64,000 nucleotides of DNA from a phage: assembly GCA_023802575.1 (NCBI GenBank), contig GCA_023802575.1_3947.1. One strand, written 5' to 3'. Within the stretch, counting starts at the first letter, position 1. Each line of letters opens with the position of its first letter. A program made the position numbers and the translations under genes. The notes beneath the pieces were generated by a model, which was not told where the DNA came from, searched no databases, and saw nothing but the letters and a program-made list of their open reading frames with translations. Below are positions 7,864 through 34,652 of this stretch, in pieces.

Positions 7864-8447
7864 CAGTAAGTTTTAATTACAATAGTGATGGCTCTGTATC
7901 AATTAATTCACCATATGCAAATGACCTTCTTAAAGAGCTAGTCAATCAGTGTGATAGAGGTCTTCACTATGTTCAAAATTCTTTTAAGCAGAAGACTATT
8001 GCAAATAACCTGATGCGTGTGACGGTTACAACATCAAACCCAAACTACGACATTGATAGTGAAAGTCCTTACTCTTTAGTGGCTCTTGGAGAATGCAGTC
8101 AATTCAAACTTGTATGCCACGAATCAGAAACATTTCTTAAGGTATTTTCCAGCCTTATTCACAATAACAAGTATGGATATGTTGATGGTAGTGTTAACTT
8201 CTATCCAGCAAACTATACCTGTCTATTGATTGATAATATGAGAAGTAGCAAGCAAGAGCCTACAGAAATTTCATTTGATGTGAACTCTAGTCCAGATGCA
8301 GAAACAAGTAATAACTTCGATATGAGTTACGCACTATCACTGAGTAAGAAATCCGAGTTCATTGATTATGTCAATGGATTTGGTTTTAAGTTTGACGAGA
8401 GCATGAATCTCAAAAAACTTAAGAACCTACTTAAGACCAAAGCTTAA
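7857..8447 (+). CDS. hypothetical protein (196 aa)
   Basis: six-frame ORF; followed by terminator hairpin. Confidence 0.6.
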   Translation: MLTVSFNYNSDGSVSINSPYANDLLKELVNQCDRGLHYVQNSFKQKTIANNLMRVTVTTSNPNYDIDSESPYSLVALGECSQFKLVCHESETFLKVFSSLIHNNKYGYVDGSVNFYPANYTCLLIDNMRSSKQEPTEISFDVNSSPDAETSNNFDMSYALSLSKKSEFIDYVNGFGFKFDESMNLKKLKNLLKTKA

Positions 8448-8456
8448 GTATAAACA

Positions 8457-8480
8457 GGGGCTGATGCCCCTTTCTCTATT
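8457..8480 (+). terminator. intrinsic terminator-like hairpin
   Basis: AGGGGC-TGAT-GCCCCT then T-rich tract. Confidence 0.5.
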
Positions 8481-8494
8481 TATAAGGATATTTA

Positions 8495-8866
8495 ATGAAG
8501 GCTAAGAGTGCAAAAGACTTTTACTGCTTCCTACAATCCTATATCCACTCCGTGGAGAATGGTGAAAGATATAATCTCAACGATGTTATTGCATCACCTT
8601 TAACATGGAGAATGAGTAAATGGCCTGAAGAGGATATTACACCAACTGCCGAACAACCCGCCTATAACCCAGAAATTAAACTCCCAGATTCAGATAAGTT
8701 ACTATACCCGATGTTCCACATTGTTGGGCTTGGTACGTTTCTTATGGATATCCAGTATGTAATTGGTAAGGGCTATAAAGTTGAAGGTATTGTTGTTAGT
8801 GATGTGTCTCCACAACATAAAGGCTATTTTAGATTAAACGCACGTTTAGAGGCTAAAAAGAAATGA
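8495..8866 (+). CDS. hypothetical protein (123 aa), paralog of the N-terminal domain of the next gene
   Basis: N-terminal similarity to 8863..9996 (K-x-x-DF, GxRY, W(P/R)..E(E/A)DI, MD(I/L)QY). Confidence 0.6.
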   Translation: MKAKSAKDFYCFLQSYIHSVENGERYNLNDVIASPLTWRMSKWPEEDITPTAEQPAYNPEIKLPDSDKLLYPMFHIVGLGTFLMDIQYVIGKGYKVEGIVVSDVSPQHKGYFRLNARLEAKKK

Positions 8867-16872: not shown

Positions 16873-17121
16873 TTAGTTATAATCTTGCTTGTTGTAGTAC
16901 AGGGAGACAATTTTTTCTCCCCAGTAGTGGTAGTGATATTCCTCGTTTATGGCTTCTTTTACAGCGTCCTTCCAAAAGTCATCGGTAGGGTTATAATCTG
17001 GTAGCACCTGCTGAATCAGCATTTTGATAAGGTCAAAGGTGTTATTTGTTCCACCGATATCGAATTTTGCATCAAGTTCGTGGCAGCCATAAGCATTAAC
17101 AGTTACGCGGATAGTTGACAT
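16873..17121 (-). CDS. hypothetical protein (82 aa)
   Basis: six-frame ORF; GGAGA SD upstream; small-gene cluster. Confidence 0.5.
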   Translation of the reverse strand: MSTIRVTVNAYGCHELDAKFDIGGTNNTFDLIKMLIQQVLPDYNPTDDFWKDAVKEAINEEYHYHYWGEKIVSLYYNKQDYN

Positions 17122-17189
17122 AATTTAGATTCTCCAGTTTAGGACTTTGTTTAGTGGGGAAGGTCATTCCCTCCCCGTTGATTAGTAAT
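17122..17189 (-). promoter_or_regulatory. conserved intergenic cassette type B (GGGGAGG..CCTTCCCC hairpin, conserved leader, SD GGAG)
   Basis: shares CAACGGGGAGGGAATGACCTTCCCCACTAAA..AAGTCCTAAACTGGAGA with 5 other intergenic copies. Confidence 0.6.
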
Positions 17190-17453
17190 TTACTGCATAT
17201 TGGCGTATGTTGCAAGCCTTTTTTCGTTGTATTTTGTAAGAATCTCACAAGACAAAACATCGTACTTTGTAACAGCGTTGCCTTTGTCGAGGTCAAAGAA
17301 TCCAAATGCTTTACCATCTTTGAATCCGACAACTTCGTAAGATTCTTTGATGATTTCACCATTGAATAAATCGCTTTCGATACGGTGAAACAGTGCTACA
17401 TCTTCTTTGTCAGTTGCAATCTGCAATAGTGTGGTTAATTCTACGTTTTCCAT
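17190..17453 (-). CDS. hypothetical protein (87 aa)
   Basis: six-frame ORF; cassette upstream. Confidence 0.5.
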   Translation of the reverse strand: MENVELTTLLQIATDKEDVALFHRIESDLFNGEIIKESYEVVGFKDGKAFGFFDLDKGNAVTKYDVLSCEILTKYNEKRLATYANMQ

Positions 17454-17519
17454 CTTGATAACCCCTAGTTTAAGGACTTTATTTAGTGGGGAAGTGATTT
17501 CTTCCCCTTGATAGACACT
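17454..17519 (-). promoter_or_regulatory. conserved intergenic cassette type B (variant)
   Basis: GGGGAAGAAATCACTTCCCC hairpin plus shared leader. Confidence 0.5.
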
Positions 17520-18047
17520 TTAAAGATTTGATAACGTTTCGTCAAGTGCATTTTCTAAATTTTTTAAAGATTTTTCGTAAAGCTTGATTAAATCTGTTAA
17601 TGCCTTGCCTAACGTTACTTTAAAGATATCTGTTTTGTATTCACTTGTAAACAGTTTTTCAACTTCATAGATTGGGTGTTGTTGATTGCCTGTACCAGTA
17701 GCAGACACGCCAGTGTAGAAAATTGCAATAAAAAGGTTATGAGACTTTATAGAGCGTTCATAAGCCATTTTGTATTGGTTTAGCTCGTTTTTAGTCGCCT
17801 TGATAGCCATTTCGTGAATTTCTGCGACGATAGCCATATAATCCGGCAGGATAACCGCTACGGCCTTCATAAAGTTGTTAGCTGTTATCATTTGCTGATT
17901 TGGGCGATGTATGTAATATTTCTTATCTTCCCCTTTCGTGATAACTGCAAAAGTTTTATCTTTCAGGGTAAATTCGAAAGTATCCTTGACAGGCTTTTTC
18001 ATTACGTCTTTTGAGCGAATAGTGTTGATTGCTGTGAACTTATTCAT
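17520..18047 (-). CDS. hypothetical protein (175 aa)
   Basis: six-frame ORF; GGAGA upstream. Confidence 0.55.
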   Translation of the reverse strand: MNKFTAINTIRSKDVMKKPVKDTFEFTLKDKTFAVITKGEDKKYYIHRPNQQMITANNFMKAVAVILPDYMAIVAEIHEMAIKATKNELNQYKMAYERSIKSHNLFIAIFYTGVSATGTGNQQHPIYEVEKLFTSEYKTDIFKVTLGKALTDLIKLYEKSLKNLENALDETLSNL

Positions 18048-18247
18048 CTTGATTTCTCCAGTTTAGGAAGTTGTTTTGCTTGATAGGTACTATAGGGCTT
18101 TTAGAAAGTGATTGCAAGCAATTTTTTAAGTTTATCTATAAAGAATCTTTTAAGTGAATCCCTTTTAGATAAACCCCCTCGAACAAAGTTACCAATGTCA
18201 AGAGGGATTGTCAACATTTTTTTTAAAAGTTTTTTGTAAGTTATTGA

Positions 18248-18589
18248 TTAACTGATGAATATTTTTTCAGGTTTTACATAGCTGATACGCTGATTTTTTA
18301 GCAGGCTATCCCATAACAAGGCGGCAATGTGCCCATATCCGGCCTCACGCAGACCCTTCATCGTTTCAACTCGACTCTCAAAACGATTTGCGTAATACTC
18401 GCTATTAAGTGTCGTTTTGTTTCCTTCGTTATCTGTATGGATGATTTGCATCACTTGAAAGGGGCTGACATCCTCGCCTTTGTTCCACTGCTCAAAGTAT
18501 TTTAGGCACTGCATAGGCGACATCTTATCACTGACTTGAGTTGACCAAGATGAATTTTCTTTATTGGTAATTACAGTTACATAAGCCAT
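18248..18589 (-). CDS. hypothetical protein (113 aa)
   Basis: six-frame ORF; cassette type A upstream. Confidence 0.55.
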   Translation of the reverse strand: MAYVTVITNKENSSWSTQVSDKMSPMQCLKYFEQWNKGEDVSPFQVMQIIHTDNEGNKTTLNSEYYANRFESRVETMKGLREAGYGHIAALLWDSLLKNQRISYVKPEKIFIS

Positions 18590-18675
18590 TTTAGAATCTC
18601 CAGTTTAGGATTTAGTGGTAAAGCTCTTTATCTGGGGCTTAAGATACCAACTTTTAAGCCCCCTGTAAAGTACTT
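18590..18675 (-). promoter_or_regulatory. conserved intergenic cassette type A (GGGGCTTA..TAAGCCCC hairpin, AGATAAAGAGCTTTACCACTAAATCCTAAACTGGAGATTC leader)
   Basis: near-identical copies at 19875, 21003, 22302, 22648 and a variant at 20209. Confidence 0.6.
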
Positions 18676-18924
18676 TTAAGCGTCTTTGTATTCGATTTCT
18701 ATACACTCACCTTTTACTAGCTCAAAAGTCCACAGTAAGCGTTTATATTCAATAACTATTACAGTGATAAAGTCAGTTCTTTTTTCATTAGTTTTGAAAT
18801 CTATTGTGTGAGTATACTCATAACTAGACTTATCCATGATTTTTCCATAGCGTCTACATTCTTTGTAGACTTCATCCATTAAACCATTGTTAACCATGCT
18901 TTTAAGTTGCGTTTTAGTATACAT
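18676..18924 (-). CDS. hypothetical protein (~82 aa)
   Basis: ORF 18676..18990 with start moved to ATG at 18924 downstream of cassette SD; the 5' extension translates the cassette. Confidence 0.5.
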   Translation of the reverse strand: MYTKTQLKSMVNNGLMDEVYKECRRYGKIMDKSSYEYTHTIDFKTNEKRTDFITVIVIEYKRLLWTFELVKGECIEIEYKDA

Positions 18925-19014
18925 TTTAGAATCTCCTAGTTTAAGGACTTTATTTAGTGGGAAGGTCATTCCCTCCCCGTTGATTGACACTATATAGACT
19001 TTAATCAGGCTTGT
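18925..19014 (-). promoter_or_regulatory. conserved intergenic cassette type B
   Basis: sequence match to other type B copies. Confidence 0.55.
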
Positions 19015-19248
19015 CTAGTCTTTTTCAATGAGAATCTCATATTGACCGTCCACGCTGTCAAAATAGATGCCGTCTTCATCTTCTGTCTTAAAGTAGCATT
19101 GAATGTCATCACTGGCGGGATAGTCTTGTCTTGCTATCTGGCAAACTTGAATAGCATTTTCTTTACTTCCTGTAAACTCCTCAAGCCCTTTAAAATCACA
19201 TGAATGACCGTTACAAATGGAAAGGATGAGATAAATGGTTGTAAGCAT
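19015..19248 (-). CDS. small secreted protein candidate (77 aa) with N-terminal signal-like segment
   Basis: hydrophobic N-terminus MLTTIYLILSICNGHSC; four Cys; AGAGGG SD. Confidence 0.45.
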   Translation of the reverse strand: MLTTIYLILSICNGHSCDFKGLEEFTGSKENAIQVCQIARQDYPASDDIQCYFKTEDEDGIYFDSVDGQYEILIEKD

Positions 19249-19316
19249 GGTTTAAGCCCTCTAAATGGCCCTGTACGGGCCTTAAGTTGGAAGTTGGTGT
19301 CTTTGTACTGATTAAC

Positions 19317-19874
19317 CTAAAAGTCTTTTAAATTGCGTTCTGTGATGTTTGCCGTGATTTTATCCAGCAGGTCACAAAACACAGAACTATCACCGCTATT
19401 CTGTACAATTTTCGCCATACTTAACAAATCATCGTCAACATAGCCTAAATTGCGGTTAGTTGCATCTGGTACAAAGAAAGGCGCATACATTGCACTAAAT
19501 TTCGTCGAGTGAAGGCCAATAATCCAATCTTTATCAAAGTGTCCGGTAAAGCTGGCGATATCACTCATGTTGTCACAAGAATAATCATCCTCTAGCTCTT
19601 CCTCTGGGATATCCATCTCAATGACAATTACGTCCTGCGTTTCCATTTGGAAAGCTGCCGTAATAAGCCCAGATTCTAAAGCGTTTTGAATGCATCGTTC
19701 ACGAATGTAAGAATCTTCCTCATCTTCCAGACATTCCGTTTTGATAACCTTGTTCATTGGGTAAACGTAGAAACAATCATCCATGTAGGAGCAGTTCCAG
19801 ATTCCTTCCGGCTTGTCGCCACCATTCAGTAAGTTTACAAAGTTTTTCAGAGTAGTGCCGTGATAGCATTTCAT
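19317..19874 (-). CDS. PARP-like (H-Y-E type) ADP-ribosyltransferase domain candidate (185 aa)
   Basis: N-terminal YHGTTLKNFVNLLNGG aligns residue-for-residue with the PARP catalytic motif WHGSRTTNFAGILSQG; aromatic-rich segment and acidic VIVIE follow. Confidence 0.5.
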   Translation of the reverse strand: MKCYHGTTLKNFVNLLNGGDKPEGIWNCSYMDDCFYVYPMNKVIKTECLEDEEDSYIRERCIQNALESGLITAAFQMETQDVIVIEMDIPEEELEDDYSCDNMSDIASFTGHFDKDWIIGLHSTKFSAMYAPFFVPDATNRNLGYVDDDLLSMAKIVQNSGDSSVFCDLLDKITANITERNLKDF

Positions 19875-19959
19875 TTTTGAATCTCCAGTTTAGGATTTAG
19901 TGGTAAAGTTCTTTATCTGGGGCTTACTTTATCGAACTATAAACCCCTTGTAAAGTACT
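19875..19959 (-). promoter_or_regulatory. conserved intergenic cassette type A
   Basis: sequence match. Confidence 0.6.
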
Positions 19960-20208
19960 TTATTTAACTTTTTTGAGAAAAATTAGTTTAACTGCAACTG
20001 TAGGAATCTCGTCAGCGGTTGTAACCAGCATTACTTTTTGAGTGACCAACTTATAACCGTTCTTTGCAGCGTATGCGGTAAAACGGTTGACATTGTAACT
20101 ATAAGTTTTTGGTGTGTTGTCTGGCATGTGGTAAAGAAAAGGTTTACCCAAGTTTTCTTCTTGTGTCAATAGTCGGCAGGTATCAGGGATATTGAAATAG
20201 TTCATCAT
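19960..20208 (-). CDS. hypothetical protein (82 aa)
   Basis: six-frame ORF; GGAG SD. Confidence 0.5.
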   Translation of the reverse strand: MMNYFNIPDTCRLLTQEENLGKPFLYHMPDNTPKTYSYNVNRFTAYAAKNGYKLVTQKVMLVTTADEIPTVAVKLIFLKKVK

Positions 20209-20299
20209 TTTTTAATCTCCTAGTTTAAGGACTGTGTAAAGCTCTTTATCTGGGGCTTAAGATACCAACTTTTAAGCCCCTTGTAAAGTACTTTATTAC
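20209..20299 (-). promoter_or_regulatory. conserved intergenic cassette (type A hairpin, hybrid leader)
   Basis: GGGGCTTAA..TTAAGCCCC hairpin plus AGATAAAGAGCTTTACAC. Confidence 0.5.
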
Positions 20300-20497
20300 T
20301 TAATTTTTGACAACTTTTAAAACTGCAAGATAACCTAAGCAATAAGAATCCCCGAAGAGAGTTCTACCCATGAAAGAATCCTCTTTGATATCCTTTGCAG
20401 TGACAGTTTTTTCTACGCCGTGGGAAAGGACTACATCACCAACTTTGATATCTTTGATGTGTGTTGTTTCAATGGTTAAGCCGTTAATAATAGCCAT
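20300..20497 (-). CDS. hypothetical protein (65 aa)
   Basis: six-frame ORF; cassette upstream. Confidence 0.45.
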   Translation of the reverse strand: MAIINGLTIETTHIKDIKVGDVVLSHGVEKTVTAKDIKEDSFMGRTLFGDSYCLGYLAVLKVVKN

Positions 20498-20597
20498 TTT
20501 AGAATCTCCTAGTTTAAGGACTTTATTTAGTAGGGAGGTTATTGCCTCCCCGTTGATGAGTAATTTAATCTATCTAAAAATCAGTGTCAACATCTTT
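20498..20597 (-). promoter_or_regulatory. conserved intergenic cassette type B
   Basis: sequence match. Confidence 0.55.
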
Positions 20598-21002
20598 TTA
20601 AAGTTCTGCGTAGATTGCATCACAGACATCACGGAAATCATGATTTGTTAAGTTACGTTGTAACCAAGTGGCAAAGAAATCAGCGATTGCAAAATTAGCG
20701 TCATACTCGACGGATAGCCACACTTTAACAGCAAATCGGAACATCTTTAAATCAAGCTCTTTATTCATTACCTTTGATTTGCCTAACATGTCGGCCATCT
20801 CATGTTGTGCACCGTCTAGCGTGATACCGGCTGCAACGTCAGCCAATGAGTTTTTTACGCTTTCAACGTCTAAGATAATACTTTGAATCTTCCCAATAAT
20901 GTTTTGCAATGTTTCATCTGGTGCTGATGATGTGATAACATTAATCCGGTTGACGGTCAAACGTGCTTTTAAGATAGATAACTCACGATTATTAATAGCC
21001 AT
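20598..21002 (-). CDS. hypothetical protein (134 aa)
   Basis: six-frame ORF. Confidence 0.55.
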   Translation of the reverse strand: MAINNRELSILKARLTVNRINVITSSAPDETLQNIIGKIQSIILDVESVKNSLADVAAGITLDGAQHEMADMLGKSKVMNKELDLKMFRFAVKVWLSVEYDANFAIADFFATWLQRNLTNHDFRDVCDAIYAEL

Positions 21003-21087
21003 TTTTGAATCTCCAATTTAGGATTTAGTGGTAAAGCTCTTTATCTGGGGCTTACTTTATCGAACTATAAGCCCCTTGTAAAGTACT
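21003..21087 (-). promoter_or_regulatory. conserved intergenic cassette type A
   Basis: sequence match. Confidence 0.6.
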
Positions 21088-21360
21088 TTATGCTAAATGC
21101 AGCTTTTTGCCTTTTACTATGATGTAACTTGATGCGCTATTGCCGCATACATCTTGATAAATTCTACGCAAACGGCCTTCGTAGTATACTTTCCAGCTAG
21201 TTGGAATCTTTTTCCCGTATCCGGTAGCAGTTTTTTGGAATCCTGCAAGTTGCCAATCCAAAATGTGCTGTTCAGCTTGTAAATCCTCGAAGTGCATTAC
21301 ACCGTTTACATAGTGGCGTAGGGTTACGTTTAAGGTGCGACCGTTGTTAGTAGTGTACAT
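21088..21360 (-). CDS. hypothetical protein (90 aa)
   Basis: six-frame ORF. Confidence 0.5.
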   Translation of the reverse strand: MYTTNNGRTLNVTLRHYVNGVMHFEDLQAEQHILDWQLAGFQKTATGYGKKIPTSWKVYYEGRLRRIYQDVCGNSASSYIIVKGKKLHLA

Positions 21361-21450
21361 TTTAGAATCTCCTAGTTTAAGGACTTTACTTAGTGGGGAA
21401 GGTCATTCCCTCCCCGTTGATTAGTAATTTACTTGTTTTTAAAACTAAAA
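21361..21450 (-). promoter_or_regulatory. conserved intergenic cassette type B
   Basis: sequence match. Confidence 0.55.
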
Positions 21451-21783
21451 TCAAGAGAAATTTTTTCGTTTGTTCAGTTCTTGGACAATTACAGTGTAAT
21501 AGTCTTTTAAGTCACTGATATTTAAAGCATTTATCAGAGAGTTATAATCATCGACTAATTGAAAATCATCTTTGAAAATGTCACTGATTTGATAAGTTCT
21601 TGCCCTGAATCTGAAACTCATCTCTAACCGTTTTAATTGTTCATCACTTAAACGCTCTAGAAAGCTCATTACAAGACTATTACTAACCTGTTGTGTGATT
21701 GCCTTACTTGCCAGATTATAGGCGCTATAAGCCTTATAGAGCGCCAGAATAGCGATGATTGCAGTTATGGCCATCATTAACAT
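21451..21783 (-). CDS. hypothetical membrane-anchored protein (110 aa)
   Basis: N-terminal hydrophobic helix; six-frame ORF. Confidence 0.5.
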   Translation of the reverse strand: MLMMAITAIIAILALYKAYSAYNLASKAITQQVSNSLVMSFLERLSDEQLKRLEMSFRFRARTYQISDIFKDDFQLVDDYNSLINALNISDLKDYYTVIVQELNKRKNFS

Positions 21784-22073
21784 GGTGCTTCCTCTTTACG
21801 TGACACTTTGCCATTTACAGTTATCTCATAAGAATCTAGTAAATCGCTTTTAGCTTTGACAGGACTTTTAAGAGTATCATCATAGATATTAACTTGCAAT
21901 ACAGGTTTTTTATACCCCATGCAACTATTCCATAAGCAAATCACTACACGACGACCTTTTATTTTACCGTGTAACCATTCCATAACATCATGGCTGTTTC
22001 TTGATGTTTCAATGAAATCAATTTTGTTGAGTAACTTGCTTAGATTTTCACGAACTTTATTTGATAATTTCAT
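21777..22073 (-). CDS. hypothetical protein (98 aa)
   Basis: six-frame ORF; 7-nt overlap with downstream gene. Confidence 0.5.
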   Translation of the reverse strand: MKLSNKVRENLSKLLNKIDFIETSRNSHDVMEWLHGKIKGRRVVICLWNSCMGYKKPVLQVNIYDDTLKSPVKAKSDLLDSYEITVNGKVSRKEEAPC

Positions 22074-22088
22074 TTTTGAATCTCCAGT

Positions 22089-22301
22089 TTAGGATAAAAT
22101 AGTAATCGTAAAATTGTAATGACCATTAAGCTGATAAGCATAACAGTTAGAGAATACACCAACTAACCGAGGTTTTCCATAAATTTTCATGCGCTCTTTA
22201 ATCTCTTTGAGAGATTTCAAACCTGTAAGGTCTTTATTGAAATAGTCATCATCTGTGAACAGGACTTGTGAGGCGGTTTTCAGTTTTTGATTAATGTTCA
22301 T
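22089..22301 (-). CDS. hypothetical protein (70 aa)
   Basis: six-frame ORF. Confidence 0.45.
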   Translation of the reverse strand: MNINQKLKTASQVLFTDDDYFNKDLTGLKSLKEIKERMKIYGKPRLVGVFSNCYAYQLNGHYNFTITILS

Positions 22302-22389
22302 TTTTGAATCTCCAGTTTAGGATTTAGTGGTAAAGCTCTTTATCTGGGGCTTAAGGTATCAGCTTTTAAGCCCCCTGTAAAGTACTTTA
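22302..22389 (-). promoter_or_regulatory. conserved intergenic cassette type A
   Basis: sequence match. Confidence 0.6.
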
Positions 22390-22647
22390 TCAGATTAAAT
22401 TGCCAGTTAATGATAAGTGCATTTTATAGCCTTTTTTGGTAAAGACGTTCACTTTACCGAGTGATTTTACACCTTTAAAAAGGTTGTTTGAACTGCGTTT
22501 TAAGGTTAGTTGTTTATCAACCTTCACGCCCCACCTTACAGCAGATTGTTTTCCGTTGTCAACCACTTTCCCGCATAACTTTTTAGCCATGATACGAGCG
22601 TCATCACGAGTTTTTACAGTAATTACAACGTTTTTGATAATAGCCAT
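22390..22647 (-). CDS. hypothetical protein (~85 aa)
   Basis: ORF 22390..22662 with start moved to ATG at 22647 (cassette SD spacing). Confidence 0.45.
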   Translation of the reverse strand: MAIIKNVVITVKTRDDARIMAKKLCGKVVDNGKQSAVRWGVKVDKQLTLKRSSNNLFKGVKSLGKVNVFTKKGYKMHLSLTGNLI

Positions 22648-22733
22648 TTTTAAGTTCTCCAATTTAGGATTTAGTGGTAAAGTTCTTTATCTGGGGCTTA
22701 CTTTATCGGACTATAAGCCCCTTGTAAAGTACT
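22648..22733 (-). promoter_or_regulatory. conserved intergenic cassette type A
   Basis: sequence match. Confidence 0.6.
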
Positions 22734-23117
22734 TTATTTGTTAATTTTGAAGATAGTTACGTAACCATCACTACCGATTATTTGAGACGCTCCAGCTTTT
22801 TCTACTTGATAGCCCATATTTTCAAGATGATAAATAGCATCATCGTAACCGTATGCGCCACCCTGATAACGTCTCTTGTCACATCTTATCAGGTTTTTTC
22901 CACGTCCTGCAAGTGCATGGAGAATGGATTTTTCACTTGAAAGAGTACCATCTAGCATTGTAGCTGTGTAATGGTTGATTTTATTCCCGTTGATATCGTA
23001 CTTGAAATTAAATGAGTGAACAACAATAACGTTACCTTTAAAATTCTCATCAAGTGACTTCTCCAGTGCGTTGCGAAAGTTGTCTTTGTTCACGAATTTA
23101 GGTGCACGGTATGCCAT
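22734..23117 (-). CDS. hypothetical protein (127 aa)
   Basis: six-frame ORF; cassette type B upstream. Confidence 0.55.
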   Translation of the reverse strand: MAYRAPKFVNKDNFRNALEKSLDENFKGNVIVVHSFNFKYDINGNKINHYTATMLDGTLSSEKSILHALAGRGKNLIRCDKRRYQGGAYGYDDAIYHLENMGYQVEKAGASQIIGSDGYVTIFKINK

Positions 23118-23185
23118 TTTTGAATCTCCAGTTTAGGACTTTGTTTAGTGGGGAAGGTCATTCCCTCCCCGTTGATGCAAATACT
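23118..23185 (-). promoter_or_regulatory. conserved intergenic cassette type B
   Basis: sequence match. Confidence 0.55.
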
Positions 23186-23330
23186 AGATAACCACGTTCA
23201 AAGAGTCAAGAAAAATTTTAAAAATATTTTTGGCAAAACTGTAATGAAACGGGCGCACACGACTACCACAAAACAGAACACAAATCAAGAATTATTTTTC
23301 AATCCGCTACAAATTTTTCTCTTGACTTTT

Positions 23331-23365
23331 GGGGAGAGGGGGAGTAAGAGGGGGAGAGGGGTTGG
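23331..23365. repeat. purine-rich GA tract (GGGGAGAGGGGGAGTAAGAGGGGGAGAGGGG)
   Basis: low-complexity G/A run in intergenic region. Confidence 0.6.
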
Positions 23366-23385
23366 TCTGGCTGTTTATAAAAACC

Positions 23386-23566
23386 TACCTGCACAATTCT
23401 AAAATGATTTTTCTTGCCCGACCTGAGCGGGGTCTGCACGTTTTGAAAATGAAAAAGCTCTTTGGAGATTACCTGCACAGTTTGAAAATGAATTTTCCCT
23501 TTGGAGTTCAAAATTCTCTCCACAGATTTCTGTCCAGACTTTTACCTGCACAATTCTGAAATGAAA
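23386..23566. repeat. three direct repeats of ~21 bp ACCTGCACA(A/G)TT(C/T)(T/G)(A/G)AAATGA
   Basis: copies at ~23386, ~23470 and ~23546 in ORF-free region upstream (minus sense) of the small-gene cluster. Confidence 0.6.
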
Positions 23567-23637
23567 AAGCCCCCCTTACCTGAAAAATTTACCAGATAAG
23601 AAAGGCTTAGTCTATTGTGTATATTCTACACAGTTTC

Positions 23638-24423
23638 TTAGTTCTTTGCGTCTAAGAAGGTAACTTCTGGTGATGAGAAGATTGCCTTAACATTCTCATC
23701 AGTTCTCGCATAAATGTAAGCATCTGCATCACTACCGAATGTCACAGCAATACGATTATTGCTCTTTGACAGGCGGGTAACTAGAGCGTTACTTAGAGAC
23801 ATCTTTTCAACCGGAGGGTTACTTTGATGTATCTTACCCTTTCTACGTCTGAAGAGGGTAACTGCATTATCTGTGAACACTGCTATACCTGCAAAATATT
23901 CTGGTTCACAATAGTTCTTCCAACCTGAGCGTAACTTGTGGTACATCTCACCTTCATAGACATATAAGTAAACGTCTACGCTTTTCATTACCTGATTGAT
24001 GATAACGGTGACAGCTTGATGGTCAAGTCCACCGATACCTGCACCAATCATAGGTAAACCAACTTTCTTCAACTGATTAACTTCGCAGTACCTGTTAAGT
24101 TTCTTCAAAGATGACTCTAAAGCACTGTATCTGGCATCTTTACCAGTTTTAAGCTGAGTGTAGAGGTTAGCTATACGGCCTTGTTCTAAACGTGCTACAG
24201 AGATATTACCTAGTAAATCCTCACAGGGTTTATGTCCAATGCCACCTGCGTACAAGTAAACTTCTGTGTCAGTTTCATAGGCTTTTGGGTAAAGTTTAGA
24301 AATCTTGTCAGCAATACCTGCACCCATTAAGTTCATACAGTTGCAACCGTGTCCAATGACATCAAACTTGCCTTTATCAAAAGCATTAAAGATATCACCA
24401 TTGATGATTTTTACAATACCCAT
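23638..24423 (-). CDS. macrodomain protein, TARG1/OARD1-like ADP-ribose processing fold, with ~100-aa C-terminal extension (261 aa)
   Basis: GDIF...GHGCNCMNLMGAGIA and LPMIGAGIGGLD match the TARG1 motifs GDLF...AHCISEDCRMGAGIA and MPRIGCGLDRL. Confidence 0.75.
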   Translation of the reverse strand: MGIVKIINGDIFNAFDKGKFDVIGHGCNCMNLMGAGIADKISKLYPKAYETDTEVYLYAGGIGHKPCEDLLGNISVARLEQGRIANLYTQLKTGKDARYSALESSLKKLNRYCEVNQLKKVGLPMIGAGIGGLDHQAVTVIINQVMKSVDVYLYVYEGEMYHKLRSGWKNYCEPEYFAGIAVFTDNAVTLFRRRKGKIHQSNPPVEKMSLSNALVTRLSKSNNRIAVTFGSDADAYIYARTDENVKAIFSSPEVTFLDAKN

Positions 24424-25997: not shown

Positions 25998-26477
25998 TTA
26001 ACCGAGGACTTTAGCAAGGATATTCGCAGCCATCGAAGAAGCTTTTGCAGCAGCAACTACGCCAGCTTTGACAGTGCTATCCTTAATAGCAGATACCGTT
26101 GCAGCATCAGTAAAGAGATAAGTGATTGTTTTGGAACCACTTGTAAAGGAAAGCATAAGAGTAGTTTCCAGATTGAAAGAGCGATACGGAGCACCTTCTT
26201 TAACGATACCTTCAGCACCTAACTCTGAAGCCTTACCCATATCATAGATAGTCATCAGGTTTTCTTTGTGTGCAGTCGTTGAACCAACACCTTTTACGTG
26301 CTTCTTAACGTTCAACAATGCACGATATTCACGAATGCTACCGTCAGCTTTTACATTAACAGCACGGAAAATTTTACCTTCAAAGTTACCTTGAATCATT
26401 TTACGAACTACTTCAGATTTGTTTGCCGTATCGTCCAGTGCTACCGTAATGATATTGTTCATAAGTTCTTCTCTCAA
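25998..26477 (-). CDS. hypothetical protein (159 aa)
   Basis: six-frame ORF. Confidence 0.55.
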   Translation of the reverse strand: MREELMNNIITVALDDTANKSEVVRKMIQGNFEGKIFRAVNVKADGSIREYRALLNVKKHVKGVGSTTAHKENLMTIYDMGKASELGAEGIVKEGAPYRSFNLETTLMLSFTSGSKTITYLFTDAATVSAIKDSTVKAGVVAAAKASSMAANILAKVLG

Positions 26478-27169
26478 TGTTTAACTAACATAGTTTTAAT
26501 GTGTGGAAGGATTCTGTTTACCTTCTGAACATTATTCTCTGTATCTTCTATAAAGCATACTATATTAAAGTAAGGAAGAATGCAAGACTGAATCATCCTC
26601 ACTTTCAAACTTTCTGCACTTATAGAGTTAGTTCCAAAACCACGCATAAAAAGCAAGTAATCATGCTCTATATTGTGCCTTAAAAACATCTCAGTAGGTA
26701 TTCTCTGAGATTCACCTCTTGCTGTCAAGAGTCCAACTGCTGCATGATTTGCAATTGCATCAATAATGTTGAAAACATATGTTGGTTTTGCTCTTACAGA
26801 ATCAAGAAGATTAGTGTACTGTGAGAATGACCCATCAGTCAATTCCGTTGAGCAATCTTCGTGATTAAAATTTGTAAGAACGCCATCAATATCTGCTAAG
26901 ATGAGGTTACCTTTTTCTACAAGGTCTTTATTGACTATGACTAAACTATCACGCCTTACACCTATAGTTTGTCCAGTCTCTTTGTCCACAACGCTCACAA
27001 TTGGTTCTGATGTATGGAACTCTTCAAGTGAACATACAACTTCTCTTGCAGTATCTTCAAAATCCCTGCACTGTTCTGGAGTCCATACACAGGAATCAAG
27101 ACCTAACTCATGAGGGTGCAAGTCATAAGCATGGCACAGTACTTCATCAGACTTTCTTAATTTTTTCAT
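26474..27169 (-). CDS. HAD-superfamily phosphatase-like protein (231 aa)
   Basis: motif I-like LADIDGVLT; later GLLTAR; weak call. Confidence 0.4.
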   Translation of the reverse strand: MKKLRKSDEVLCHAYDLHPHELGLDSCVWTPEQCRDFEDTAREVVCSLEEFHTSEPIVSVVDKETGQTIGVRRDSLVIVNKDLVEKGNLILADIDGVLTNFNHEDCSTELTDGSFSQYTNLLDSVRAKPTYVFNIIDAIANHAAVGLLTARGESQRIPTEMFLRHNIEHDYLLFMRGFGTNSISAESLKVRMIQSCILPYFNIVCFIEDTENNVQKVNRILPHIKTMLVKH

Positions 27170-31928: not shown

Positions 31929-33710
31929 TTAAAGCTGCTTGTCAATATTATTTCGAATATCGCCAAGAGTTGTGTAGCCAAACTGCTCAGAGTCACTAAA
32001 GACTAAACGTAAAGCACAAGCTGGATGTTCAAGTGCATCTGCAAAGCTCTGGAATCCATAGCCATCTACAGCTTTCAATTTATCACCATCCCACATAGGC
32101 GCTACACCACCAAAGGCAGACTTCTTCACACCACTATCTGTTTTAGGGTCTTTTGCAAGCATAATCTCCTTACCACCAATGCTTGCAAGAGTTGCTTTGA
32201 CAGCAAATGCAAAGGTGTCACGAGTCATGTACTGGTAAGTGTAAGAGCCTACACCAAACACTACGTTAGAGCTTGCAAAACCCATTTCATACAAACGCTT
32301 CAATATTTCGTTTGCACGTTCCAACGTGATAGAGTCACCATAAATAAGTCCGATGTGCTCATCCAGTACTTTAAAACCTTTGGAGTTGATAGTCCCTCCG
32401 AAGATGTTATACAGGGTCTTAATAGCTCCATCAATCTCTGCTACAGGACGTGTTACAACGTTTGCAGAACCAACCATATAAGCATTCTTCAGCAGTACTG
32501 TATCAGCAACTTCAAAGTCTTCTCGGTCAACAACCATTTCGTAGCCTTCTGACAGTAGCCATCCAGCAATACCATAGTTGATGTTTTCAAGCTTCATGTT
32601 CAGAACAGATTTCAGCATTGTATCACTAGCTTCCAGCTTGCTAAGATGTTCATAATAAGCCTTCTTAGCACATTCTAAGTGGATTGCTTTATAACCTGTG
32701 ACAATATGCACAGGGTCTCCAGAGTCAGGACGAATTACCAGCTTGCCGTCACGTTCCATAATCTCTTTACGGAGTTCTGGCAGTATCACTGATACAGTTC
32801 TCCAGAAGTTATAAGTATCTGAAACAATACTTGCAATACCCGTTGGGTAAGTTTCTGTTAAGAAACGACGGAAGGTTTGTAACTCACCTTTAAAGCGTCT
32901 TTCTTCTTCAATCAATTCGTTACCACCTTCCCAAGCAATGTTTGCACACATTACAGAGTGCTCAGTGGCTGGTACAGAGCTACCAATATCAGAGACTGGG
33001 TAAGACTGTCCGTAGATGCGTTTAGCTGTATATACGGCAGGGAAGCTATCAGTTCCTTTAAAGCTGGTCAAGTGGCCTACAGCATTAAATGCGTCATCAG
33101 TAAAGCCGGACATACCACGCATAGCAAAGTCATGGCACTGATAAGGCAAATGCAAGTCGTTATCACAAGTAAGGTCAGCCCACTTCTTACAGATACGTTT
33201 GTAGTGCAATGCAATAGTTGCAATGGTACAAGCCTTCCAAATCTCAGCAGAGAAAGCATCTTCCAGATAACCTGCTACCCAATGGAAACCTGAAACAGTG
33301 TTCTGGAAAACAATCATTGGGACACGCATAGGGACAACTGTGCCTTCTTCTACAGCGTATACTTCAACTGGTAGATAACCTAAGTCGTGAAGTGCTTCCC
33401 AATGCTCTCGACCGATAGCATCTTTACCAAGAACACCATTCATGACTTCTAAGATTTCGTCAATTGTTTCTTTTTTATCACGTTCAAAGAAAGTGGCATT
33501 CCAGTGGTCTATCAAGTAATCTTTAACAAAACGTTGAATACCAAAAGCCGCTACACCGTCAATTGCTAAAGGGCTGTTAAACCATTTATCACTACGTGGT
33601 GTCAGGTTGAACATCAAGTACTCTGTTGCGCTAGGATACTGGTAAACATGACCAGATTTGTAAGCATCTGCATTTAAACCTGCTGGTACTGCATAAAGTG
33701 ATTTAGTCAT
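31929..33710 (-). CDS. NAMPT-family phosphoribosyltransferase (593 aa): nicotinamide phosphoribosyltransferase NadV or NARP1 nicotinamide ADP-ribose transferase (Namat)
   Basis: N-terminal ADAYKSGHVYQYP matches NAMPT signature DSYK.TH..QYP; co-oriented directly downstream of Prs-like gene. Confidence 0.8.
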   Translation of the reverse strand: MTKSLYAVPAGLNADAYKSGHVYQYPSATEYLMFNLTPRSDKWFNSPLAIDGVAAFGIQRFVKDYLIDHWNATFFERDKKETIDEILEVMNGVLGKDAIGREHWEALHDLGYLPVEVYAVEEGTVVPMRVPMIVFQNTVSGFHWVAGYLEDAFSAEIWKACTIATIALHYKRICKKWADLTCDNDLHLPYQCHDFAMRGMSGFTDDAFNAVGHLTSFKGTDSFPAVYTAKRIYGQSYPVSDIGSSVPATEHSVMCANIAWEGGNELIEEERRFKGELQTFRRFLTETYPTGIASIVSDTYNFWRTVSVILPELRKEIMERDGKLVIRPDSGDPVHIVTGYKAIHLECAKKAYYEHLSKLEASDTMLKSVLNMKLENINYGIAGWLLSEGYEMVVDREDFEVADTVLLKNAYMVGSANVVTRPVAEIDGAIKTLYNIFGGTINSKGFKVLDEHIGLIYGDSITLERANEILKRLYEMGFASSNVVFGVGSYTYQYMTRDTFAFAVKATLASIGGKEIMLAKDPKTDSGVKKSAFGGVAPMWDGDKLKAVDGYGFQSFADALEHPACALRLVFSDSEQFGYTTLGDIRNNIDKQL

Positions 33711-33755
33711 CTTTTAATCTCTCTTAAAATGGGGCTTGGAAGCCCCTATAAAGTT

Positions 33756-34652
33756 TTAATCAAGGTTTGCTACAGTAACTTGGCTATAATGTGTTAAGCC
33801 ACGGTCTTTAGCTTCCCCTAAAGAGTTTGTAGTGTAGATATGGTCAATACCATTGTCAAGAAGGTTTTCAACATCTTTAGAGAAGATACCATGTGTTACA
33901 TAGAGTTCCACTCGTTTTGCACCTGCTTCACGAAGATGTTTAGCTGCTTCTATGAAGGTTCGTCCTCCATCACAAATATCATCCAGAATCATGACGGTTT
34001 TATCTGTCAAATCAACATCGTCAAGGATTCGCATACCAGTGATTTCACCAGTCTTGAGGTTGCGTACTTTAGACATTGTGATATATGGTTTATCCACCTC
34101 TTTAGCGGTTTCTGCAACCTTCTTAGCAGCACCTGCATCTGGGGCCACTAAGTAATCAACCAGTGGGTCATTTGCATAGTGGACTGCAATCTCCTTTTGA
34201 GGAATACTCTGGAAGCAGTTAAACAGGTTATCTGGAACGTAACTGTGAGGGTCAACTGCACAGACTGCACCAAACCCCATTGCATTAACCTGTTTAGCAA
34301 AAACCTTCAAAGCTGCTGCATCGCCTTTAAACATGTGACGGTCATATCGTGCATTTGGTAAGTAGTAAAAGATGACAGTCTTTAAAGCATAATCATGAGG
34401 AATTAAATCATCAATTGCTTCTTTAGCAAGTGCTACAGCAAACAATGTGTCTTTATCATAACCTTTTACAATCATAATCACATTGTTGATGGATGATGCA
34501 GCATAAGCAGTAAAATCAACAAACTCTGGTGAAAAGTGTCCACCAATCTCACCAGAAGGAAATTGGATGATGTTAAACTCTTCTTCATGAGTTCCTTTAG
34601 TTGGTGAATGAACTGTAACACGTATAGATGTTTTCATAATTTTCTCTCTCAA
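33756..34652 (-). CDS. ribose-phosphate pyrophosphokinase (Prs)-like protein (298 aa): PRPP synthetase or NARP1 ADP-ribose pyrophosphokinase (Adps)
   Basis: phosphoribosyl-pyrophosphate binding loop VMILDDICDGGRTF; immediately upstream of NAMPT-like gene. Confidence 0.8.
   Translation of the reverse strand: MREKIMKTSIRVTVHSPTKGTHEEEFNIIQFPSGEIGGHFSPEFVDFTAYAASSINNVIMIVKGYDKDTLFAVALAKEAIDDLIPHDYALKTVIFYYLPNARYDRHMFKGDAAALKVFAKQVNAMGFGAVCAVDPHSYVPDNLFNCFQSIPQKEIAVHYANDPLVDYLVAPDAGAAKKVAETAKEVDKPYITMSKVRNLKTGEITGMRILDDVDLTDKTVMILDDICDGGRTFIEAAKHLREAGAKRVELYVTHGIFSKDVENLLDNGIDHIYTTNSLGEAKDRGLTHYSQVTVANLD

Follow-up and report, generated by a model that had tools for sequence, protein, structure and literature searches.

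We identified, in a 64,000-nt stretch of phage DNA (hereafter the window, meaning the whole stretch), two early-region genes that probably handle NAD+ or ADP-ribose (ADPR) independently of each other, one coding for an Adpp-like macrodomain protein and one for a protein with an ADP-ribosyltransferase (ART) fold, rather than forming a single writer/eraser module. The window belongs to a Felix O1-type myovirus (Felixounavirus), and a 6-kb region of it matched 254 phage records, mostly Escherichia and Salmonella Felixounaviruses. The novel element is the first open reading frame, ORF A (19317..19874), a member of an unannotated, phage-only family with a predicted ART fold, conserved NAD+-site residues and an unusual invariant loop. 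The second, ORF B (23638..24423), is essentially explained by work published in 2025-2026, and what is new about it is its unlinked, 'dispersed NARP1-AP' layout and its orphan C-terminal domain. Both ORFs lie on the minus strand exactly where a preliminary description of the sequence had placed them, with peptides identical to those quoted there, and we infer their enzymatic activities and targets from folds, homologies, residue conservation, gene layout and distribution. The features on which the argument turns are the following.

19317..19874, minus strand: ORF A, 185 amino acids (aa), phrog_3303, an uncharacterised family with a predicted minimal ADP-ribosyltransferase fold
19882..19985, minus strand: promoter-like and ribosome-binding-site (RBS) module of ~104 nt directly upstream of ORF A (TTTACA-N17-TAAAGT, GGAG), one of six copies
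23944..24423, minus strand: ORF B residues 1-160, a Poa1p-like macrodomain of the Adpp/Tk.4 family (by Pfam, hhalign, BLASTP and PDB profile comparison)
23638..23943, minus strand: ORF B residues ~161-261 and stop codon, a lineage-specific, beta-rich C-terminal domain
23567..23608, minus strand: terminator-like hairpin with a 17 bp stem and T-run, immediately 3' of ORF B
31929..33710, minus strand: Namat-like gene (Nampt/NAPRTase family), the second NARP1 enzyme
33756..34652, minus strand: Adps-like gene (Prs/PRPP-synthetase family), the first NARP1 enzyme

ORF B (261 aa), which is 100% identical to its homologue in Escherichia virus TH10, contains the motifs GDIF, GHGCNCMNLMGAGIA and LPMIGAGIGGLD, and its residues 25-141 matched the Pfam Macro family (PF01661) with 30.8 bits at a gathering threshold of 22 bits. 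Its PHROG, 335, is labelled 'phosphatase', and existing annotations of its relatives read phosphatase or O-acetyl-ADP-ribose deacetylase. Comparison of the ORF B family profile with the PDB gave TARG1/OARD1 (E 5e-15) and DarG (1.8e-13 for Mycobacterium tuberculosis, 2.3e-11 for Thermus aquaticus), both of the ALC1-like class, Poa1p (1.4e-11) and SCO6735 (2.2e-11) as the best relatives. The preliminary description had called this a TARG1/OARD1-type macrodomain, and the neighbourhood was right, since the protein falls into the TARG1/DarG/Poa1p clade; the mechanism was not, because in the profile alignment to 4j5r the Lys84/Asp125 dyad of TARG1 is replaced, K84 standing opposite the family-invariant Q90 and D125 opposite G131. 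The characteristic motifs of ORF B are H25-G-C-N28-C, N86-L-Y-T-Q90 and P124-x-I-G-A-G-I, and its invariant Q90 and N28 match the Gln85/Asn27 pair of SCO6735, an active thymidine-linked DNA de-ADP-ribosylase in which Gln85 is essential and is supported by Asn27 (PMC9411070). ORF B and SCO6735 are thus alike in carrying a Gln at the position of the catalytic Lys together with a supporting Asn, while ORF B lacks the TARG1 dyad, Lys80 of DarG and the DarT-binding C-terminal domain of the latter. The C-terminal extension of ~100 aa that had been noted earlier was indeed found as an extra domain, which is orphan, beta-rich and lineage-specific.

Two recent studies define what macrodomains of this kind can do. 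When aRES systems, which contain a RES domain, split NAD+, the products are nicotinamide and ADPR-1''-phosphate, the latter not being usable by NARP1. A macrodomain termed Adpp, the gene of which lies no more than two genes away from 15% of NARP1 operons, dephosphorylates ADPR-1''-phosphate, constituting the NARP1-AP pathway; mutations in Adpp, whose constructs include H24A, abolish the effect (Osterman et al., bioRxiv 10.64898/2026.01.28.702374). Using HIDEN-SEQ, T4 tk.4 ('AdfM') was found to be needed for escape from DarTG2, its knockout sensitising T4 (bioRxiv 10.1101/2025.11.20.689424). The full macrodomain of ORF B aligned by hhalign with the biochemically validated Adpp of Vibrio phage Gary (KNV71_gp137) at a probability of 99.8% (E 1.2e-28), and the Adpp H24 mutated in the H24A construct aligned with the invariant H25 of ORF B. 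With a Pakpunavirus Adpp (Table S1, bioRxiv 10.64898/2026.01.28.702374) ORF B shares 30% identity (E 4e-22), and with Tk.4 33.7% (E 7e-23, 79 bits), including the exact motifs HGCNC, NLYTQ and IGAGI. BLASTP scores of ORF B were 79-83 bits for T4/RB5 Tk.4, 55-77 bits for Adpp (77 for the Pakpunavirus protein), 47 bits for TARG1 and 29 bits for PhiKZ AdfM. In a bootstrapped neighbour-joining tree, Tk.4 (99), Adpp (94) and the two-domain proteins of the ORF B type (100) formed three supported clades. Judged by sequence similarity, then, phage Adpp and T4 Tk.4/AdfM are the closest characterised relatives of ORF B.

These relatives differ from ORF B in instructive ways. Adpp of phage Gary has the same three motifs and catalytic His, and both phages encode Adps and Namat; ORF B, however, is separated from NARP1 by about a dozen genes instead of lying inside the operon, and it has the additional C-terminal domain of ~100 aa and a clade of its own. 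T4 Tk.4/AdfM belongs to the same family (~34% identity) and is, like ORF B, an early-region gene of a virulent coliphage, but it is a single-domain protein (155 aa) of a separate clade. PhiKZ gp104 AdfM (chimallivirus DarG2-like, PMC13309987) is also a phage macrodomain acting against ADP-ribosylating defence; unlike ORF B, it is of a DarG-type subfamily that retains the Lys (V-N-V and P-T-K motifs), in keeping with its score of only 29 bits.

The genomic context of ORF B favours an Adpp-like role. The NARP1-like gene pair that had been reported about 8 kb away was found at 31929-34652, on the same strand and upstream, with 7.5 kb between it and ORF B and 12 kb between it and ORF A, and this Adps/Namat-like pair is conserved in 258 Ounavirinae records, with the full two-domain macrodomain present in an equal number. 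NARP1 itself was defined and discovered in phage Bas63. We take Bas63 to be a Felixounavirus, and a literature search returned no paper naming Bas63 together with a macrodomain. We propose that ORF B, as a two-domain member of the phage Poa1p-like macrodomain family, hydrolyses C1'' substituents of ADP-ribose, and that it most likely acts like Adpp, stripping the 1''-phosphate from the ADPR-1''-phosphate produced by aRES cleavage of NAD+, after which the phage's own Adps and Namat would rebuild NAD+ in a dispersed form of the NARP1-AP pathway. In Pakpunavirus YS35 (L041:11969-15480) the gene order is Adps-like, small ORF, Namat-like, small ORF and Poa1p-like macrodomain, which is the published NARP1-AP layout, and in this group of phages a homologue of ORF A is encoded as well, at another genomic position (PaP1 gp143). 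As a further observation on this region, many Felixounavirus relatives have an HNH homing endonuclease annotated where their matches to the Namat/Adps region fall into two pieces, and this gene is absent from the window.

Several results weigh against assigning ORF B to the Adpp pathway. Published Adpp proteins are those encoded within two genes of Adps or Namat, a distance that the 7.5-kb separation exceeds, and the Adpp list in Table S1 of bioRxiv 10.64898/2026.01.28.702374 contains no Escherichia or Salmonella phage; the absence of Felix O1-type phages from that table is explained by the same separation. The branching order among the Tk.4, Adpp and ORF B clades received a bootstrap value of 40, and because ORF B is in addition equidistant from Adpp and T4 AdfM, homology alone does not choose between a phosphatase and a DNA glycohydrolase. 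Moreover, the sole NCBIfam and PADLOC match of ORF B was DarG. That match reached 49.4 bits at an NCBIfam cut-off of 250 bits and was limited to the macrodomain (model positions 4-155 of 338), and with a Gln at the catalytic Lys position and a C-terminal domain matching no known fold ORF B does not qualify as a DarG.

The foremost alternative is that ORF B serves mainly as an anti-DarT2 DNA ADP-ribosylglycohydrolase, that is, as an AdfM, and not as an ADPR-1''-phosphate phosphatase. The bit scores of Tk.4, slightly above those of Adpp (79-83 versus 55-77), the identity of its three motifs, the DarG match, the Gln/Asn active site resembling that of SCO6735, which removes thymidine-linked ADP-ribose from DNA, and the DarTG2 sensitivity of T4 without tk.4 all speak for it. 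On the other hand, the phage of the window encodes NARP1, which T4 is not known to carry, the Pakpunavirus homologue is embedded in a NARP1 operon, and the catalytic His of Adpp is conserved in ORF B. We regard this alternative as possible but on balance unlikely, with the proviso that the phosphatase and DNA glycohydrolase activities are not mutually exclusive: an anti-DarT2 role is equally compatible with the homology, and ORF B may, in addition to acting as a phosphatase or in place of it, free phage DNA of DarT2-type ADP-ribose in the way of Tk.4/AdfM, to which it is equally related. ORF B thereby poses the question whether Adpp and AdfM, phosphatase and DNA de-ADP-ribosylase, are one bifunctional family. 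Under the Adpp-like reading, it also suggests that the published NARP1-AP count (15% of NARP1 phages, with the macrodomain within two genes) is too low, as ~258 Ounavirinae genomes combine NARP1 with an unlinked Adpp-like gene.

For ORF A, whose peptide begins MKCYHGTTLKNFVNLLNGG and contains GIWNCSYMDDCFYVY and VIVIE, the evidence comes from structure prediction and conservation. The AlphaFold2 (AF2) model (pLDDT, the predicted local distance difference test score, 80.7; pTM, the predicted template modelling score, 0.81) predicted an ART core with a split beta-sheet, in which strand 1 bears a conserved His and strand 2 a conserved Tyr, so that the structure prediction proposed as a check in the preliminary description came out in favour of an ART fold. 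In the model the ART lobe starts at residue 2, a long helix (residues 54-76) is inserted, and further helices follow at the C-terminus. Conservation was counted in a 76-sequence family alignment reaching ~25% identity. The strand 1 motif is close to invariant (H5 in 75/76 members, G6 in 73/76, T7 in 70/76), as are W26 (76/76) and S29 (72/76), both located before predicted strand 2, and Y36 (75/76), which sits on that strand (residues 34-39). The loop before strand 5, which occupies the position of the ADP-ribosylating toxin turn-turn (ARTT)/acceptor loop, carries a D-x-S-C-x-N-M motif in which D97 and S99 are found in all 76 members, C100 in 70, N102 in 68 and M103 in 74. In one member, P0133, a Val occupies the strand 1 position that is otherwise invariably His (GYVGMT), and this copy may be degenerate or inactive.

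Sequence comparisons agree with this picture of the NAD+-binding half. Phmmer and sub-threshold Pfam PARP matches set H5-G-T opposite H862-G-S and Y36 opposite Y896 of PARP1, and the 'IYF' of family member P0130 likewise aligned with PARP1 Y896. The PARP-like match over HG[ST] and the adjoining helix described earlier was reproducible, if weak: when the 76-sequence family was compared with the PARP1 catalytic fragment by hhalign, exactly that stretch and nothing else aligned (pairwise E 0.029). The same HGT also aligned with the HGT motif of Tpt1, and the H...S...Y spacing of ORF A mirrors the NAD+-contacting R6...S25...H31 of TreTu. Minimal ART-fold enzymes (the NAD+-binding lobe of Tpt1/KptA, the TreTu/TreX Rhs toxins, Arr, DarT and the mono-ADP-ribosyltransferase (mono-ART) PARPs) have in common with ORF A the predicted split-sheet core, the H-G-T of strand 1 and an aromatic residue on strand 2, and Arr, TreTu and AcrIF11 are also small, standalone proteins. 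ORF A differs from these families in showing no detectable sequence membership in any of them, in its inserted and C-terminal helices, in having its invariant acid in the loop before strand 5 and not on that strand, in its phage-only distribution and in having no adjoining immunity gene.

The same analyses also yielded evidence that counts against an ART-fold transferase. Searches of Pfam, NCBIfam, PADLOC and the PDB with ORF A, both as a single sequence and as the 76-sequence profile, gave no match above threshold. Against the PARP catalytic domain, PF00644, the gathering threshold of which is 26.7 bits, the ORF A of the window had no match at E<=1, and the best member of its family scored 19.8 bits. 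The sub-threshold PARP matches, seen in 9/76 members, covered profile positions 48-103 only, and at the sequence level the resemblance to PARP is confined to the N-terminal, NAD+-binding half. Across the 76 members there is no conserved acidic residue on strand 5 (predicted residues 107-109), and D97 starts a low-confidence loop between a two-residue strand (95-96) and strand 107-109, with residues 99-102 at pLDDT <50. The 'acidic VIVIE' that had been pointed out does not supply the conserved acid: its E86, a strand 3 residue, occurs in no more than 48/76 members and was rejected as the catalytic Glu on conservation, and the invariant acid is D97. ORF A could be of an H-Y-D type, with the acid supplied by the modelled loop, or alternatively of an H-Y-hydrophobic type like the mono-ART PARPs and Tpt1, which can still be active; indeed, ARTs without an acidic third residue can remain active mono-ARTs (PMC9825190).

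The family is widespread among phages. An exhaustive profile search collected 304 representative clusters, 129 of them with E<=1e-10, and the members listed are almost all standalone proteins of ~160-240 aa; few further distant members came from a word-indexed homologue search that used the profile. By tblastn the family was found in 373 sequenced phages, always annotated as 'hypothetical', comprising Ounavirinae of Escherichia, Salmonella, Shigella, Citrobacter and Erwinia, Pseudomonas Pakpunaviruses (e.g. PaP1 gp143) and 138-kb Vibrio phages. No relative emerged when 185,579 bacterial and archaeal genomes were scanned for the motif, the family's sources being phage genomes, viral contigs and metagenomic contigs only, and a search of IMG/VR with three single distant members found no related loci. 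The gene itself is a divergent allele: ~42 phage records have at least 80% protein identity to it and ~330 less than 60%, the flanking DNA is ~90% identical, and megablast matches to HY02 and EC6 end exactly at the ORF A start, a pattern that suggests allele replacement or diversifying selection. Between lineages, the neighbours of ORF A showed no conservation. In a 72-kb metagenomic contig (L035; 2702-8597), a complete set of NAD+ salvage genes, consisting of NUDIX, isochorismatase (PncA-like), NMNAT-like, NAPRTase and NAD synthase (NadE) genes, has a distant homologue of ORF A (8001-8597) immediately on its downstream side, a neighbourhood that hints at a link between the ORF A family and NAD+. 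A literature search found no paper connecting Felixounavirus with an ART.

ORF A has a credible start, in which a promoter-like TTTACA-N17-TAAAGT is followed by a GGAG RBS and the ATG, and because one of the six promoter-like/RBS modules precedes it, independent, early-type expression is suggested. We propose that ORF A is a minimal ART-fold protein with its own early-type promoter module. Its most likely function is to attach ADP-ribose to a target belonging to the host or to a defence system, with H5, S29 and Y36 binding the NAD+; the loop containing the invariant D97 would act as a catalytic or acceptor-recognition element. Such a role would parallel that of the phage ARTs T4 Alt/ModA/ModB and AcrIF11 in host takeover or anti-defence. 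If ORF A is an active ART, a new enzyme family, unannotated in 373 sequenced phages, joins this short list and points to a new host target. A more far-reaching version of the proposal, speculative and in its entirety rather unlikely, is that ORF A founds an unrecognised phage-only ART clade of Felix O1-type, PAK_P1-type and some Vibrio phages in which the D-x-S-C-x-N-M loop replaces the strand 5 Glu and which ADP-ribosylates a host defence or core factor early in infection, and that in parallel the C-terminal domain of ORF B confers a new specificity on an Adpp/AdfM macrodomain, a defence enzyme or a modified macromolecule being examples of what it might bind.

The absence of a conserved acid from predicted strand 5 and the location of the most conserved motif in a low-confidence loop also fit a protein that has the ART fold but is no transferase. 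It might bind NAD+ or ADPR, act as an NADase, or be a pseudo-enzyme or decoy that plugs an NAD+-processing defence enzyme with its conserved, flexible D97-M103 loop. The phage anti-defence proteins Tad3-7 and aRad1 insert a flexible loop into NAD+ pockets, and one member, P0144, weakly matched Pfam Tad6, a Thoeris inhibitor, over its W-x-C-S...Y segment (E 0.0055). We consider such a function doubtful, since the H-G-T, S and Y residues stay near-invariant down to 25% identity, which suggests that the NAD+ site is kept, since acid-less ARTs can be active mono-ARTs (PMC9825190), and since the Tad6 match is single, sub-threshold and probably due to chance. Two more specific identities were rejected. 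ORF A is not an aRad1, these proteins being ~70 aa long and unrelated, nor is it a 2H phosphoesterase with paired H-x-T motifs, as the second H-x-T (H122) is not conserved.

The preliminary description had combined the two ORFs and the NARP1-like pair into a writer, an eraser and an NAD+ regenerator. All three components are present, as an ART-fold protein, a macrodomain and an NAD+-reconstitution pair, but the functional module that they were thought to form found no support. The coordinated toolkit in question would have ORF A write an ADP-ribose mark, ORF B erase the same mark and NARP1 regenerate the consumed NAD+. The three functions are indeed encoded on one strand in the same early region, ORF A, the two-domain macrodomain and NARP1 co-occur throughout the Ounavirinae, a distance of ~4 kb separating the ART gene from the macrodomain gene in all Ounavirinae-like contigs, Erwinia phages included, and Pakpunaviruses hold all three gene types as well. 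However, ORF A and ORF B are in different transcription units, ORF A having its own promoter-like module and ORF B, which is abutted by its upstream gene, ending at a terminator, with the 17-bp hairpin and T-run on its downstream side. Co-occurrence is confined to two lineages, and as the Pakpunaviruses have been proposed to be distant relatives of Felix O1-type phages, it may be simply inherited. Neither PaP1 nor Vibrio F100 nor any of five metagenomic lineages has a macrodomain of the ORF B type within 10-12 kb of the ART gene, and F100, which has the ART gene, lacks macrodomain and NARP1 genes in ~90% of its genome. Moreover, the characterised relatives of ORF B act on host-made products (ADPR-1''-phosphate from aRES, DarT2-modified DNA), for which no phage writer is needed. 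We therefore judge the toolkit to be improbable; the data support a shared theme of NAD+/ADP-ribose chemistry among early genes and leave a dedicated writer-eraser pair unsupported. A final alternative, that ORF A is a Tpt1/KptA-like RNA 2'-phosphotransferase in RNA repair, with ORF B disposing of the ADPR-1''-phosphate thus formed, in the manner of Poa1p in yeast tRNA splicing, is very improbable, as ORF A begins directly at the NAD+-binding lobe without an N-terminal RNA-binding lobe, Pfam PTS_2-RNA matches span only profile positions 90-127 of 177 at E>0.1, and the strand 2 position is Tyr, not His, in the ORF A family. Two independent genes remain the reading that we favour. Felixounaviruses and Pakpunaviruses are in wide use both for therapy and as model phages, and the chemistry of NAD+ and ADP-ribose has become a central matter in the conflict between phages and bacteria.

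Beyond these genes, the minus-strand gaps of the small-gene cluster at 17113-23176 contain two repeated intergenic modules, each in six copies.

18597-18700, 19882-19985, 20215-20318, 21010-21113, 22309-22412 and 22656-22759, minus strand: copies of the ~104-nt promoter-like and RBS module
17113-17182, 17444-17513, 18915-18984, 20488-20557, 21351-21420 and 23107-23176, minus strand: copies of a 70-nt module in which a GC hairpin, GGGGAGGGAATGACCTTCCCC, is followed by an RBS

ORF B is followed by a 460-nt non-coding gap (23177-23637). Besides the strong terminator-like hairpin, it contains a C/T-rich tract, a sigma70-like TTGACT-17-TAGTAT and a 22-nt repeat (TCATTTTAGAATTGTGCAGGTA-like) that occurs three times (23386-23407, 23470-23491 and 23543-23564). 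An Rfam scan of 16-27 kb of the window gave no match, and the gap could be a regulatory region or encode a small RNA. Elsewhere in the window, an ORF of 231 aa (26474-27169), which had no Pfam match at E<=0.001, is annotated as 'polynucleotide kinase' in phage GEP101.

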